A DNA stretch of 64,000 nucleotides, from assembly GCF_013122565.1 (NCBI RefSeq), contig NZ_CP053258.1; one strand, 5' to 3'. The position numbers are program-made. The DNA is from Escherichia coli. Its GTDB lineage: Bacteria; Pseudomonadota; Gammaproteobacteria; Enterobacterales; Enterobacteriaceae. Positions 45,001 to 51,000 of the stretch are shown here, piece by piece. Position 1 is the stretch's first letter. Every line of letters begins with the position of its first letter.

Positions 45001-48000
45001 ACTCGTTTCATCTCCACGAGCGGAAAAAGCAAGGCTATATTCTGCTATTGAGCAGCGGTTAGAGCAATCTCTCAAAATTATGGATGGCATTGTTTCTTCG
45101 AGAGTACATGTTAGTTACGATGTTGATACTGGCGATAGTGGTAAAACTGCTTTACCAATTCATATTTCTGTACTTGCAGTATATGAAAAAGATATCAATC
45201 CAGAAATAAAAATAAATGACATAAAGAGATTTATTGTTAATAGTTTTGCAAGCGTACAATATGAAAATATTTCTGTTGTATTGTCAAAACGAAGAGATAT
45301 TATTGAACAAGCACCAACATATGAAATTAGCGAACCTGTTTTTGCTTATGATAAGGCTATGCCGGTTTCTATCTTACTTGCATTAATATCCGTAGCGACT
45401 TGCTGGCTGTTATGGAAGTATAGGGCCATTCTAACTAATTTAGTCAGGTTGAAAATTAAGTAAACATATGAGAGCGTTATGAATCTTGCCCTAAGAAAGA
45501 TTATATATGATCCAATTAGTTATATTCATCCTCAACGAGTAACCTTGAATAATAAACCTATTAACAATCCGGTGCTTAGATCTATTACCAATGAAATGAT
45601 TCTTCTGCAGTACAATCTTTCAGTTGAACATTTTAATATGAATAGTTCACTTATTTACTACATAAACAATTGGAATTTATTTCCATTGATCTGTTTACTC
45701 AGTGGTTGTCACTTTTATCGAGAAAGATTTGCAGAACGCGGATTTTTTTATAAAGTTCCTGCTGTGCTAAGGGATTATTTATTAGCTATACCGGTGGAAA
45801 TAAATGAAAAGGCACGATACAAACCCGGCATCGCTAACTATCACAATATCATCACATGTGGTTTTTCAACGTTGTTACCCTATATAAGGCAACAACCATT
45901 GGCAATGCAGCAACGATTTAATTTATTATTTCCTGATTTTGTTGACCACATACAATTGCCGTTACCACTTGCGTCAACTCTTTTAGAGAGAATTACATTT
46001 TATGCGAAAAAAAATAGAGATGAGTTTGATAAAATCTCCTGCAAATGGTGTTGTGATTAAAAGAAAAATTTCTGATGGATTGAAAGAAATAGTTTCTCTT
46101 AAAGAAAACATCCTTCTTGAAACCACCGCAAAAATTCAGAGTATTGAGGTGAAGAGAGAAGAAAAATTTATTCAAGGTTATTATGATGGATATACAAAAG
46201 GCATTATTGATGTGATGGATAATTTTATACCCTTGATAAGCTTGTTGAGCTCAGAACTAGAAAAAAAAAGAATAATCATGATAAACGATCTAAAGAGTAT
46301 ATTGTTAAAATCTTCAGAGGAAGTTGATGTTTTTATCAAAATTTTTGAAAGTTGGATAAAAAAATTACCGTCAATATCAGGTCCTGTAAATCTCTATATA
46401 CCAACCAGTTTTAAAGATAAGTATCTTGAAGTAGAGTCATATTTTGTCGAAAAATCAAAATGGAATGTCCATATTACATTTCATGATGATAAGCGTTTTG
46501 TGTTTTTTACCGATCAATTTATTGCTGAATTTAGTCCGCAGGAATTTGTGGATAATTGTGAGCAATATTTAATTAATAATCATTGTTTCTCCCCTGACAA
46601 GGTTAACGAAATCTGCGAACAAGCCAGACATTATTTAATTGAAAAAATGTGTGAAACACATTCTTTGGATATGAATAATTCTGTTTTGGCAAGCCCTGAG
46701 GACTTATAGCTTACTGGCTCAGGTTTAATGATTTGAATATAATCTAATTCTAATATTTTAATCATCTCATGATTTTTCAATGCCCGTGTTGTTATTTTAC
46801 GCAAAAATTTTATTTTTAATTATATTTCATTATTATTTCATCAATGTATTCTTTGGATTTTGCTTATAATAATAATGGAAGGGATGATTATAAATGAATG
46901 CGTTAAAGCATTTACACTCAGGATGAATATATGGGAAAAATTAAAATTGTAGTTTCAGATCAGCAGCCGTTTATGATTGATGGGATAATTGGATTTCTCG
47001 GACATTATCCTGATTTATATGAAGTTGTTGGGGGCTATAAAGATCTGAAGAAAGCTATAGCGGAGTGTAACAAATCTGCAGCCCAAATATTTATTTTAGG
47101 AGAATTTGCAGGTGGAATGATGGGGTCCGAACTCGTAAAATGGGTTAAATCGCATAAAATAGATGCTCATATTATTACATTTGTAGCAAAGATGCCGTAT
47201 ATTGATTCAATAAAATTGCTTGAAGCAGGTGCGAAAGGATGCGTATGGAAAACCAGTCACCCGGCGAAACTAAATCGTGCTATTGATTCGATTAGTAATG
47301 GTTACACTTATTTTGATAGTGTACATATGGATTGTGAAAAAATATCTTCCAGGTATTCCTCTGATAATCAACTTACAAATCGTGAGTCAGAAATATTACA
47401 ACTCATAGCTGATGGTAAAACAAACAAAGAAATCGCTAATTACTTGCAGTTAAGCAGGAAAACAGTCGAAACTCATAGACTCAATATCATGAAGAAATTA
47501 GATGTTCACAGTGGTATCGAGTTGATCAAAACAGCTTTACGTATGGGTGTTTGCACTATATAAAAAAAAGAGGCTTTAGGCTCATTTTGCTAAAGCCTTA
47601 CGATTGTCTAGTTCATTAAGCCTGGTATATACAATATATATTTTTTGGGCATATTGCAGTCTCTTTTTTTGGTTATCCATTGCAAAACCCGCATTATAAG
47701 TCCCCAGGCATTGCCACGTTACTCCACAACGTGAAAAATGGTTATATAAAATCTCGGTTCCTATTTTAATGTTCAGACAAGGGTTATCTAACAAATCTCG
47801 TTCATCTTTTATTATTCCACGTTTTTTTAACAGGGGAATATGCATCTGGTTTATCTGCATTAACCCATAATCTAAACTCTTTATATTGTTATTCTTATCT
47901 CTGTTCTTGCCTATGCTATCCTTTTTTAGATTGCTTTCAACAAGAGCGATAGCTTTAATCAAATTTGGTTCGATTCTGAACATTGTTCCTGCTTCATTAA

Positions 48001-51000
48001 AGCAAGAGTTGCTGGCGAAAGACATTTTTGTAATTAATATACAAAACGTGAAGATGGTTAAGAATTTAACTTTTGGTGAGCGCATATTTTTTCATGTGTG
48101 AGGATTGAATGAAAGGAACGAGATACTATTATAAAAGTATCTCGTTATGATTTATTTGGTCAATCGTCTACCATTCAATTTTATAGTAAGGTGAGATAGG
48201 GTTATCTTCTGAATACATATCATTTTGAAATGACGCCATCCATGTTGAAACTATAAATGCTTGTATTTGATCTGTATCAGTAGCACTGGTGTTGATGTGT
48301 TTATCTAATGAAATAACTTCCTCACTCGTTGCTGTCGCTATATTTAAACTTTGAGAAATATCAGTCATACCGATTGGATTAGTCATAAAGCTCCCTTTTT
48401 TAATTGTCAGACCAATGGTCTTTACATCATACTTTTCAATCTAGAGTATTTTAAATATCTTGCAATAAGGTAAATATCTTAGATATTTTTATCTCTGTTG
48501 TTTAAATAACAAGTTGCATACATCTAAACAATTAAATTGCATCAATAAAAATTTATCGCATACAAATTCTCGTCAGCTGCTTTAGTTTCAAAATGTTGTC
48601 AATTATAACTTGATGGCTTTCACTCTCAGTCTCTTTATAGTAGTGTTTCATGTTGTTTTTGAGCGGGTTAGGCACATACATATCTACACATTCTTTTATC
48701 ACAACTGCTTTTCGTCTTCTGGGTTCGAGTTGTAGTGATTTGTCTATACAAATCCTTGCCTTTTCAATTTTTTCATTATGAAAGTTGACAAGTGCCCTAT
48801 AGTAGTAGAGAGAGGCTATATCAGTTGAGTGTATCTTAGCCTGTTCAAATAAGATATGAGATACTTTTGCTTGTCCAGACAGACCAGTTATCAGTCCCAT
48901 AATAGCTAAAATTTTTCCATCGACATTGGTTATGTCTGATACATAATCTAAAAGCTCTAATGCTTTTTGAGCAGCAAGTTCAAGTTCACTTTTTCCATGA
49001 AGTGCCAAAGACATATGGCATTCCGCTAGAAGGCAATAACATTCTGTTTTTAGCGTCTGTATATCACTTTTATTCTGTAATCTATCAAATATAGTCATGG
49101 CCCTATAAATGCTTTCAGGGGTGAACTCGTAAAGTTCTTTCTTTCCGGCTAACATTTCATCTGATAAATAATGATTCTTATATCCTTGGTCCTGCTTAGC
49201 TAATCTTACTGAACGTTCTGGATTATGTACCGTTTGAAGGATATTATCTATAATAAATTGTGATGTATTATGTAGTTCATCAACAGGTAGATGATTACTG
49301 GCGATGAGGAAAAGGTTTTTAGCGTCGATCAACTCAATGTATAAAGTGTTCACTGCATTATTCTGGTTTATTCTTCCTGTAACGAAATAATCTGGCTTGA
49401 ATCTTCTCAAAAATGAATTTTGTGATGTGTGGTCATTACAAAAATTTGTCGCAGCCATCGGATAGGTATAGAGGCCATCGATTTTTTTATTTGAAATGAT
49501 TTGCACTAATTCCTGATTAAGTATTAATGGATCCAGTGTTTTCAATGAAGTGGTGAAAGGGAATATAGCGATGGAATAGTCTGAAGTGTTATCTTCATTT
49601 ATTTTAGTTTTGAAAACCTGCCCACTGAAACGATAACCTTTCCGGTAGATTGTTTCTATGCAACGATCATAGCCAATTTTTTCAAAAATGCAGCGCAAAG
49701 AATAGATACATCTTGTCAGGGACTCATCACTAACAATAATATTTTTCCATACTGATTCGATGATCATATCTTTCAGTACGACATGACCAGCGGATTCAAG
49801 TAATACTATTAATACACCTAACTCTTTCGGTGGAATATAAACTTGCTCATTTCCTTGAGTAAGAATTCCATCTTCCGTGAGCGTTAATCCCTCAAGAAAA
49901 TGATATGAGAATTTATTTTCTAAGTCCATTAGTTAACCTCTATGAAAAAATTGGTTTCTTGCATCCTGCATAAGCAATAGAAATTATGGCTATTCATATT
50001 TATGTGTCATTAACGCTACAGGAGTTTACATTCGACATATCTATGTTTGTGTTCACTAATTTATATTAGGAATTCAGTGATGTAATCTGAAATAGCCTTA
50101 TTCAATTTTGATAAAATAGATTGTTCTCTAACGCGTTGAAAAATAATATTTTTTAGTGTGTTCTTAACTGTTTTAAGATGTTGATTTAAGAAAACATAAG
50201 AGGTGCTGGTCATAGTGGTTACTGCACTATAACCAGCATTTTTAACCAAATGATTGTAATGCTTAGCCATTATCTTCTGAATTATCGGTTAAGAGTTCAA
50301 TATATGCCTGCGCTTTACTCTTAACACTATCATCCTCACAATTGTTAATAATATGATAGAAACATTGCATTGCGTTATCGATATTTTTAGCCCCAATTTG
50401 ACATTGACCCATACGATAAATAACTGAATAGTCATCATACGGGGAGTAATTGTAACTTAGTTTGTAAAGGTCATATGCTTGTTGATATTTCTTTTTTGAC
50501 TGACATACTGATGCATAACCTTTTAGATACTCATGATTTTCGAACGCGTAAATGCACAAAAATTTATAATAAATTTCTGCGTCCGTTATATTACCATTTT
50601 CATGGTAGTCGAATGCATATGCATATATTCTATCAAGGATATCAGGAGTCAAACCATGTAGTAATGCCAGATTTTCTCCTTTCGATAATGCGTGTTTTAG
50701 TTGATTTGCCCATTCATCACTATTATTGAATATTTCAATTGTTTCTGTGTCCATAATATTCCTCTGTGATGTGTCTCGTGATGCTAAATTATTGTTGATT
50801 GACTCATTGATATTTTTATATTTATCTTTTTTAAATTATGAGTTTTAAGCTTGCATTGCTTATGAGTATATTTCTTCATTATTGGTAAAATTACTGTCCA
50901 CTACAAACTAATAACATCATTAGTTGTTTTACTAATATTCACCTTATTAGCTATCTTAATTACGACATTCCATAAATGCCTTAATGTGCATGACCATGAT

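Follow-up and report, generated by a model that had tools for sequence, protein, structure and literature searches.

The segment was identified, with good confidence, as the ygeH-ygeI-pbl module of the Escherichia coli ETT2 type III secretion island. It would represent the conserved slot for a hilA-like regulator and a lytic transglycosylase (LT) of SPI-1-family systems in rebuilt form, in which Pbl, judged from its sequence, is a periplasmic SLT lytic transglycosylase of the PilT (IncI thin-pilus) type and not an orthologue of IagB/IpgF. The genes have been published under these names, as has the hilA-iagB block, so the segment constitutes no new system. Within the window, the whole stretch of 64,000 nucleotides that was analysed, the HilA-like gene, the tiny ORF and the LT gene described in the initial annotation were recovered on the minus strand with exactly the same limits. 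The features of the region are as follows.

49930..50262, minus strand: ygeH upstream region (ygeG to ygeH), with a promoter-like site, a hairpin and a small ORF
48553..49929, minus strand: ygeH, 458 amino acids, HilA-family transcriptional activator
48387..48552, minus strand: ygeH-ygeI spacer, 166 bp, AT-rich
48168..48386, minus strand: ygeI, 72 amino acids, orphan without a family match
48117..48146, minus strand: hairpin with an 11-bp stem, between ygeI and pbl
47582..48085, minus strand: pbl, 167 amino acids, SLT-domain LT, predicted PilT type
46931..47563, plus strand: ygeK/etrB-like gene for a LuxR-type response regulator, converging on pbl

The K-12 record has the same gene order (ygeH, b2852; ygeI, b2853; pbl, b2854), and the region was found in 3576 of 5426 complete E. 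coli genomes, with a top identity of 97.7%. Chance resemblance was ruled out by the homology E-values of the module genes. The stop codons of pbl and of the LuxR-type gene are 18 bp apart. Around ygeH-ygeI-pbl the ETT2 island is apparently intact, and the pbl frame is unbroken in this genome. ETT2 attrition is widespread: K-12 carries pbl, ygeK, ygeF and the org remnants as pseudogenes, XJ34 has several broken apparatus genes, and the O157 allele of YgeH did not complement a Salmonella hilA mutant (PMC4210603). It is nevertheless unlikely that this process has left the module as a decaying relic without function, its ORFs open only by chance, as all examined ETT2 ORFs in the window are open, ygeH, pbl and ygeG are under purifying selection (omega 0.1–0.2 within E. 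coli and against E. albertii; 0.13 for ygeH within E. coli and about 0.1 for pbl against E. albertii), the YgeH of strain 042 is active (PMC4210603) and the Pbl protein has been observed in the proteome of O157:H7 (PMC5924783).

YgeH genuinely belongs to the HilA family of regulators. The protein contains a Pfam Trans_reg_C domain (residues 28–101, E 8e-13), an OmpR/ToxR-type winged helix, in addition to TPR-like matches, and it matched the NCBIfam YgeH equivalog NF008870 with 1070 bits (cutoff 800) over residues 1–458 of 458. The invariant motifs of the HilA/EilA family, ESLTRC...YGKGY, are kept. The NCBIfam HilA/EilA model NF009037 matched with an E-value of 3e-79 at profile positions 17–427 of 553, its score of 266.8 bits missing the cutoff of 589; the last ~125 residues of HilA/EilA are absent from the 458-residue YgeH, most homologues having 550–580 amino acids. 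A phylogeny of YgeH against HilA bore out the HilA-like character proposed earlier, with the HilA family including YgeH split from the outgroup (bootstrap 1.0), EilA and two ETT2-like regulators as the nearest partners of YgeH (0.78), and the HilA proteins of Salmonella and Providencia joining this group next (0.50). In strain 042, YgeH complements the Salmonella hilA mutant and replaces HilA, a ygeH mutant has reduced expression of ETT2 genes, and the ygeH promoter region is bound by H-NS (PMC4210603). By extension from the 042 allele, YgeH in this genome may be a DNA-binding activator of the HilA family that is silenced by H-NS and turns on the ETT2 operons.

The gap of 467 bp between ygeH and pbl contains ygeI. 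The spacer preceding ygeI ends in a GGGAG ribosome-binding site 5 nt upstream of the ATG, and the encoded polypeptide is acidic (pI 4.05), with no family match in Pfam and NCBIfam searches. In E. albertii, an ORF of 72 amino acids occupies the same position, with 44% amino acid and 66% nucleotide identity to the E. coli gene and an invariant C-terminus (DMY..DNPISPY.K.EW). Searches of all collected HilA-family loci by tblastn and HMM revealed no YgeI homologue outside Escherichia, and a search with the E. albertii copy against 5.8 billion proteins returned Escherichia sequences only. On these sequence comparisons, ygeI is a conserved orphan confined to Escherichia ETT2.

It is quite unlikely that ygeI is not a real gene, being either an ORF that arose by chance in AT-rich spacer DNA or a degenerated remnant of the 3' end of a formerly full-length ygeH. 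The lack of a family match and of homologues beyond Escherichia would fit such an origin, as would an omega of 0.73 within E. coli (a figure with only 8 substitutions behind it), a location where the regulator's missing ~125 codons would lie, and a poor AlphaFold2 model (pLDDT 57, pTM 0.25) with a single helix at residues 38–57. However, the 72-codon frame, the GGGAG site and the C-terminal motif are all kept in E. albertii at that level of nucleotide divergence, and pN is 0.34 against a pS of 0.76 in this comparison. Descent from the lost end of ygeH is without sequence support, since comparing the spacer by blastx with 80+ HilA homologues produced no hit with an E-value under ~1, all three frames scored negatively with an HMM built from HilA C-termini, and alignment of the YgeI profile to that of the HilA C-termini using hhalign gave a probability of 0.16%.

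The hairpin directly 3' of ygeI, 31 bp 5' of pbl, is unchanged in K-12 and XJ34. Its E. albertii counterpart has a 14-bp stem, the GAGATAC/GTATCTC core in common and a T tract after it. It is possibly a terminator or attenuator between ygeH-ygeI and pbl. With a spacer of ~470 bp that now holds ygeI and this conserved hairpin, pbl is probably uncoupled translationally from the regulator.

SPI-1-family systems share a conserved block in which an LT gene follows a regulator gene (PMC7232297). A same-strand SLT gene was present downstream of the HilA-family gene in 48 of 80 loci; the gap was at most 40 bp in 46 of these 48, with a 4-bp overlap in 33 by our own start-codon calls. In Salmonella enterica subsp. 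arizonae, for example, hilA (553 amino acids) is followed 17 bp on by iagB (160 amino acids) on the same strand. The module had been described in the initial annotation as mirroring hilA-iagB, which held for the order of the genes: as in SPI-1 hilA-iagB and Chromobacterium Cpi-1 cilA-iagB, a HilA-family wHTH/TPR gene precedes an SLT gene on the same strand of an Inv-Mxi-Spa-type island. It did not hold for the further layout. The ygeH product is ~100 amino acids shorter than that of Salmonella hilA, the spacer of 467 bp, which holds an additional gene and the hairpin, contrasts with gaps of 40 bp or less in SPI-1 and Cpi-1, and the ETT2 enzyme is, by its sequence type, PilT-like whereas theirs are IagB-type. 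Neither ygeI nor the spacer had a counterpart in the SPI-1 loci compared. Moreover, the ETT2 module and the epr-org operon are convergent, separated by the LuxR-type gene, whereas Salmonella hilA-iagB diverges from prg-org; the LuxR-type gene beside pbl is an ETT2-specific arrangement with no SPI-1 counterpart at this place. The enzyme genes of Chromobacterium, Providencia and Pseudomonas and Shigella ipgF are directly upstream of prgH, unlike pbl, which lies downstream of ygeH and does not adjoin eprH.

Pbl matched Pfam SLT with 99.8 bits, and its top relative of solved structure was EtgA of the LEE type III secretion system (8urn, E 2e-22). The Glu of its ALVES motif, the putative catalytic residue (ALVE50S), aligns with the catalytic Glu of EtgA, as does the next Asp in both sequences, and the N-terminus reads as hydrophobic and signal-like (...MSFA/SNSC). 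By homology to IpgF, IagB, EtgA and PilT, Pbl would be exported to the periplasm and cut peptidoglycan locally, allowing passage of the apparatus through the wall. A protein search with Pbl returned only near-identical E. coli variants.

Several lines of evidence place Pbl with PilT rather than in the IagB family, to which it had been assigned in the initial annotation. An HMM of the PilT type scored Pbl at 194 bits, compared with 146 bits for the IagB-type HMM, which is barely above the scores of EtgA (132) and of IncF gene X (136) with the same model. Pbl is 53–55% identical to PilT of the IncI2, IncI1 and IncK pil operons and 36–43% identical to hilA-linked enzymes; for Salmonella IagB and the enzymes of Chromobacterium and Providencia, the identity is 60–66%. 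Pbl and the PilT-type enzymes have in common one insertion of 5–6 residues and one of 2 residues, neither of which occurs in any of the 48 IagB-type enzymes, and a CG..W.C cysteine pair found in 3/3 Pbl-group, 4/4 PilT and 0/48 IagB-type sequences. Conversely, Pbl is without the short loop and the YG..WEAVG motif of the IagB/IpgF clade. A phylogeny of Pbl against IagB/IpgF (neighbour-joining, as were all trees, ~146 columns) was calculated with 182 taxa; exact-split bootstraps around Pbl were at most 0.35, and this tree was replaced by a labelled set of 34 taxa, HMM scoring and discrete characters. The IagB/IpgF clade left Pbl out with 88% bootstrap, Pbl being inside it in 0 of 1000 replicates, and the grouping of the Pbl group with PilT had a bootstrap of only 45%. 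The GC content is 34% for pbl, 36% for ipgF, 34% for the Providencia gene and 40–46% for pilT; the AT-rich IagB-type genes of Shigella, Providencia and Salmonella cluster with GC-rich ones, so base composition is not the cause of the placement of Pbl.

That the module is a plain orthologous copy of SPI-1 hilA-iagB, with pbl a vertically inherited, diverged IagB/IpgF orthologue in a uniformly SPI-1-like island, is distinctly improbable: position and strand order are those of hilA-iagB, the ETT2 enzyme is entered under iagB/ipgF in a published table (PMC7232297) and Pbl matches the NCBIfam IagB equivalog at E 2e-36, but that match is far under the cutoff (124.8 vs 208 bits), and together with the IagB-type HMM scores, the tree replicates, the two indels, the cysteine pair and the exclusion of a composition effect this largely refutes the orthologue reading of pbl. 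Nor was a second LT of the Pbl family, as a displaced IagB-type relic, present in the 64-kb window, and no compared locus has two.

Outside ETT2-like loci, the nearest relative of Pbl in sequence is PilT from the thin (type IVb) pilus operon of R64/IncI, with the loop insertions and the cysteine pair in common. The surroundings differ: the PilT gene is part of a pil operon (pilS-pilT-pilU-pilV), with the pilin gene on one side and the prepilin-peptidase gene on the other, whereas pbl follows a HilA-family gene in a type III secretion island, with ygeI and the LuxR-type regulator gene as neighbours and no type IVb pil operon. EtgA is likewise a specialised peptidoglycan-cleaving SLT enzyme of a type III secretion system, although of a different family of these systems and without the PilT-type insertions and cysteine pair.

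The combination of a HilA-like regulator and a PilT-type LT was also found in two ETT2-like loci. One, on a metagenomic contig (L091; Logan SRR26188682), has the ETT2 layout, prgH..prgK-orgA-orgB followed by a LuxR-type regulator gene that converges on a HilA-like gene and then a PilT-type LT gene; the placement of the LuxR-type gene is alike in E. albertii. Identities to the window proteins are 58% for PrgK, 52% for the LuxR-type protein, 36% for the HilA-like regulator (YgeH residues 17–418 aligning with its residues 22–419) and 47% for the LT. Unlike in E. coli, this regulator is full length (564 amino acids), the LT gene starts 7 bp after it and ygeI is absent. The contig also bears a Rep3-type replication gene, and a comparison with a plasmid collection gave no close match. 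In the second locus (L086), the genes for the HilA-like regulator and the PilT-type enzyme overlap by 17 bp. In a PrgK tree, ETT2 and L091 formed a branch of their own (bootstrap 0.88); ETT2 and SPI-1 are sister lineages, the former not being derived from the latter. The module had been taken to reinforce derivation of the whole island from SPI-1 as opposed to a mosaic, a claim contradicted both by this branch and by the PilT-type Pbl. Gene order by itself made the case look stronger than it is, as the LT occupying the slot comes from a different subfamily, and the module therefore argues for some mosaicism rather than against it.

Elsewhere, the PilT type is found on IncI-like plasmids, among the genes for type IVb pili and I-type conjugation. 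Such an enzyme in the slot of the ETT2-like lineage would most likely have replaced one of the IagB type. In Escherichia, the C-terminal ~125 residues of the regulator would then have been lost, and the usual 4-bp overlap of the two genes would have become a spacer of ~470 bp, now occupied by the lineage-specific ygeI and then the conserved hairpin. We would give an even chance to the full course of events, in which the LT was swapped in place from the pilus/conjugation lineage of IncI plasmids, possibly while the locus was plasmid-borne, as L091 hints, and a later truncation of the regulator left the spacer where ygeI arose, ygeI now being under selection, its product perhaps partnering YgeH or serving as a small substrate of ETT2. 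The module would be a small, clean case of a secretion island in which one gene was displaced in place and an orphan gene was born. The correction mostly concerns the annotation of ETT2, in which the gene appears as 'ipgF' or IagB-like, and calls for caution in using the block as proof of a uniform descent of ETT2 from SPI-1.

A search of positions 46800–50900 against Rfam identified no RNA family. The region upstream of ygeH contains a promoter-like site at 50010–49983, a 14-bp hairpin at 50238–50204 and a poorly conserved ORF of 69 amino acids.

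The genes ygeH, ygeI and pbl are already well known. Their three open reading frames were found on the minus strand exactly inside 47582-49929, where the initial annotation had placed them, and the K-12 record agrees in names and gene order, K-12 pbl being a pseudogene. The features considered are:

48553..49929, minus strand, ygeH, 458 aa
48168..48386, minus strand, ygeI, 72 aa
48117-48146, minus strand, hairpin with an 11-bp perfect stem, between ygeI and pbl
47582..48085, minus strand, pbl, 167 aa
50061-50270, minus strand, 69-aa ORF overlapping the end of ygeG and holding a hairpin with a 14-bp stem (50238-50204)

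The ygeH-ygeI-pbl region occurred in 3576 of the 5426 complete E. coli genomes compared, at up to 97.7% identity. It is surrounded by the ETT2 type III secretion island (GC 31-40% versus ~52% in the flanks), with eprK, orgA, orgB and a LuxR-type regulator gene on the plus strand and pbl, ygeI, ygeH, ygeG and ygeF on the minus strand. The window contains the whole island (29782-54786), and all ETT2 ORFs examined were open, including the eivJ-like (298 aa), epaO-like (315 aa), orgA (193 aa), ygeK (210 aa) and pbl (167 aa) ORFs; several of these positions are pseudogenes in K-12 and strain XJ34, and ETT2 of the window looks intact. For the core genes yqeF-kduID-araE-lysR (56500-63500), top identity among those 5426 genomes was 98.7%, none reaching 99%; the strain has no close representative among them.

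Residues 28-101 of YgeH matched an OmpR/ToxR-type winged helix (Pfam Trans_reg_C), with additional TPR-like matches, and the protein passed the NCBI YgeH equivalog model (1070 bits, cutoff 800). Phylogenetic analysis placed YgeH of E. coli, E. marmotae and E. albertii and two metagenomic relatives, each of 458-470 aa, in one clade (bootstrap 1.0), which grouped with EilA and the regulators of two ETT2-like contigs (0.78) and next with Salmonella and Providencia HilA (0.50); the HilA family including YgeH was separated from other wHTH-TPR proteins at 1.0. The HilA/EilA model covered YgeH at profile positions 17-427 of 553 only, scoring under the model's cutoff, and YgeH residues 17-418 aligned to residues 22-419 of a 564-aa regulator encoded on the metagenomic contig L091 (Logan SRR26188682), which together indicate YgeH to be a HilA-family member without the C-terminal ~125 residues. 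In strain 042, ygeH is silenced by H-NS, and YgeH activates and is required for expression of the ETT2 operons; a Salmonella hilA mutant is complemented by the 042 but not by the O157 allele (PMC4210603).

Intact ygeH-like genes (459-482 aa, 42-63% identity) also adjoin yqeH-yqeI-yqeJ in E. marmotae (L098/L099), E. whittamii and Escherichia sp. E1V33 (L002/L004) and an unknown enterobacterium (L088-L090), at loci without secretion apparatus, ygeI or pbl, which suggests that the regulator is retained for a function beyond ETT2. Another sign of such regulators travelling on plasmids is H58 (238464-239545), annotated as a HilA/EilA-family regulator gene, on the 254-kb Yersinia frederiksenii plasmid NZ_MT039225.1.

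Using an alignment of diverse YgeH relatives, 80 loci were fetched from 100,044 species genomes. In 48 of the 80 the hilA homologue was followed by an SLT gene in the same orientation, with a gap of <=40 bp in 46 of these and a 4-bp overlap in 33 (by our own start-codon calls). In Salmonella enterica subsp. arizonae, HilA (553 aa) is followed after a 17-bp gap by IagB (160 aa), and the block is also found in Chromobacterium, Providencia, Pluralibacter, Aeromonas, Fukatsuia, Sodalis and many Pseudomonas; in Shigella, hilA is absent and ipgF is directly upstream of mxiG. 'hilA-iagB' has been described as one of the shuffled constituent islands among SPI-1 relatives, the ETT2 entry comprising ygeH plus an 'ipgF' (PMC7232297).

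The Pbl SLT domain scored 99.8 bits, its best solved relative being EtgA of the LEE, and the catalytic Glu aligned between the two. Pbl was 36-43% identical to hilA-linked enzymes and 53-55% to PilT transglycosylases of type IVb thin-pilus operons (IncI2, IncI1 and IncK plasmids); Salmonella IagB shared 60-66% identity with the enzymes of Chromobacterium and Providencia, and IpgF 46-53% with those two. In a tree of a labelled set (34 sequences, 1000 bootstraps), the IagB/IpgF-type clade excluded Pbl at 88%, with Pbl inside in 0/1000 replicates, and the base tree united Pbl and its two nearest relatives with PilT (45%). For Pbl, the phylogenetic check put forward in the initial annotation thus went against that annotation's reading. 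Base composition as a cause of this grouping was rejected, as the AT-rich ipgF, Providencia gene and iagB (GC 36%, 34% and 38%; pilT genes 40-46%) remain in the IagB clade. Pbl scored 193.9 bits with a PilT-type HMM versus 145.8 with an IagB-type HMM, the latter value being near those of EtgA (132) and IncF gene X (136) with that same IagB-type HMM, and it fell under the NCBIfam IagB cutoff (124.8 vs 208 bits). A 5-6 residue insertion ahead of the DYG-MQIN motif, a 2-residue insertion and a CG..W.C cysteine pair are common to Pbl, the L086 and L091 enzymes, PilT and an I-type T4SS enzyme, the cysteine pair occurring in 0/48 IagB-type sequences; these discrete characters agree with the tree. 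A search for a second, IagB-type gene or relic across the whole window found none. An EHEC family member has been called 'pilT' (PMC2912269); a phylogenetic statement of this affinity was not found in the literature searched.

Among 1.84 billion representative proteins, covered by an unbiased search, P0169 was the closest relative of Pbl from outside E. coli; its gene, on L086, follows a 565-aa HilA-like gene with a 17-bp overlap. L091, from the same sample, has the ETT2 layout, with prgH..prgK-orgA-orgB-LuxR regulator converging on the 564-aa HilA-like gene and a PilT-type enzyme gene beginning 7 bp past it. The IagB-like state is found in the outgroups (EtgA, IncF gene X) and in all other HilA-linked enzymes, so by parsimony, on which the direction of transfer also rests, the ETT2-like branch most likely exchanged its enzyme, at the same position, for one of the PilT type. 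This proposed in-place swap, with the orphan gene ygeI, is the modest new point. The proposed mirroring of hilA-iagB stands for the HilA-like regulator and the conserved block architecture; Pbl is not orthologous to IagB/IpgF, and the tiny gene and layout are ETT2-specific. Nor was derivation of the whole island from SPI-1 borne out: in a PrgK tree, ETT2 (E. coli and E. albertii) grouped with L091 (0.88) on a branch beside the Salmonella/Chromobacterium/Providencia group, making ETT2 a sister lineage of SPI-1. L091 (22.6 kb) carries a Rep3-type replication initiator gene ~1 kb from its ETT2-like T3SS segment, which includes the full-length HilA-like gene and adjoins effector-like genes of the LRR and pentapeptide kinds; a plasmid location is possible, and no close match was found in the plasmid collection.

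The arrangement recurs in ETT2 of E. albertii, with YgeH (465 aa, 55% identical), a 72-aa ORF and Pbl (167 aa, 64% identical). Family searches with YgeI gave no match, neither fetched loci nor a protein database search yielded homologues outside Escherichia, similarity to HilA C-termini was undetectable and the predicted structure was unreliable. We regard ygeI as a real, lineage-restricted gene because its length, GGGAG ribosome-binding site and invariant C-terminus (DMY..DNPISPY.K.EW) are kept in E. albertii, where nucleotide identity is 66% and pN is 0.34 versus a saturated pS of 0.76. The hairpin at 48117-48146, identical in K-12 and XJ34, has a 14-bp stem in E. albertii with the same GAGATAC/GTATCTC core and a T tract, and may be a terminator or attenuator ahead of pbl, or a protein-binding site. 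Translational coupling of pbl to the regulator would have been lost and, by analogy with its relatives, Pbl would be exported via a signal sequence and open peptidoglycan for apparatus assembly. Omega was 0.13 for ygeH in comparisons within E. coli and ~0.1 for pbl when E. albertii was the comparator; these values, and detection of Pbl in the O157:H7 proteome (PMC5924783), argue that both genes are in use.

The 69-aa ORF at 50061-50270 was 76% identical in amino acids to XJ34, the flanking DNA being 96.5% (ygeG) and 97.9% (ygeH) identical, and is probably not a gene but the terminator of ygeG together with the regulatory region of ygeH. The ygeK/etrB-like LuxR regulator (46931-47563, plus strand) was 96% identical in amino acids to E. 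albertii despite saturated synonymous sites (pS 0.80), its adjoining genes showing just 44-80% identity; by this measure it is under unusually strong constraint.
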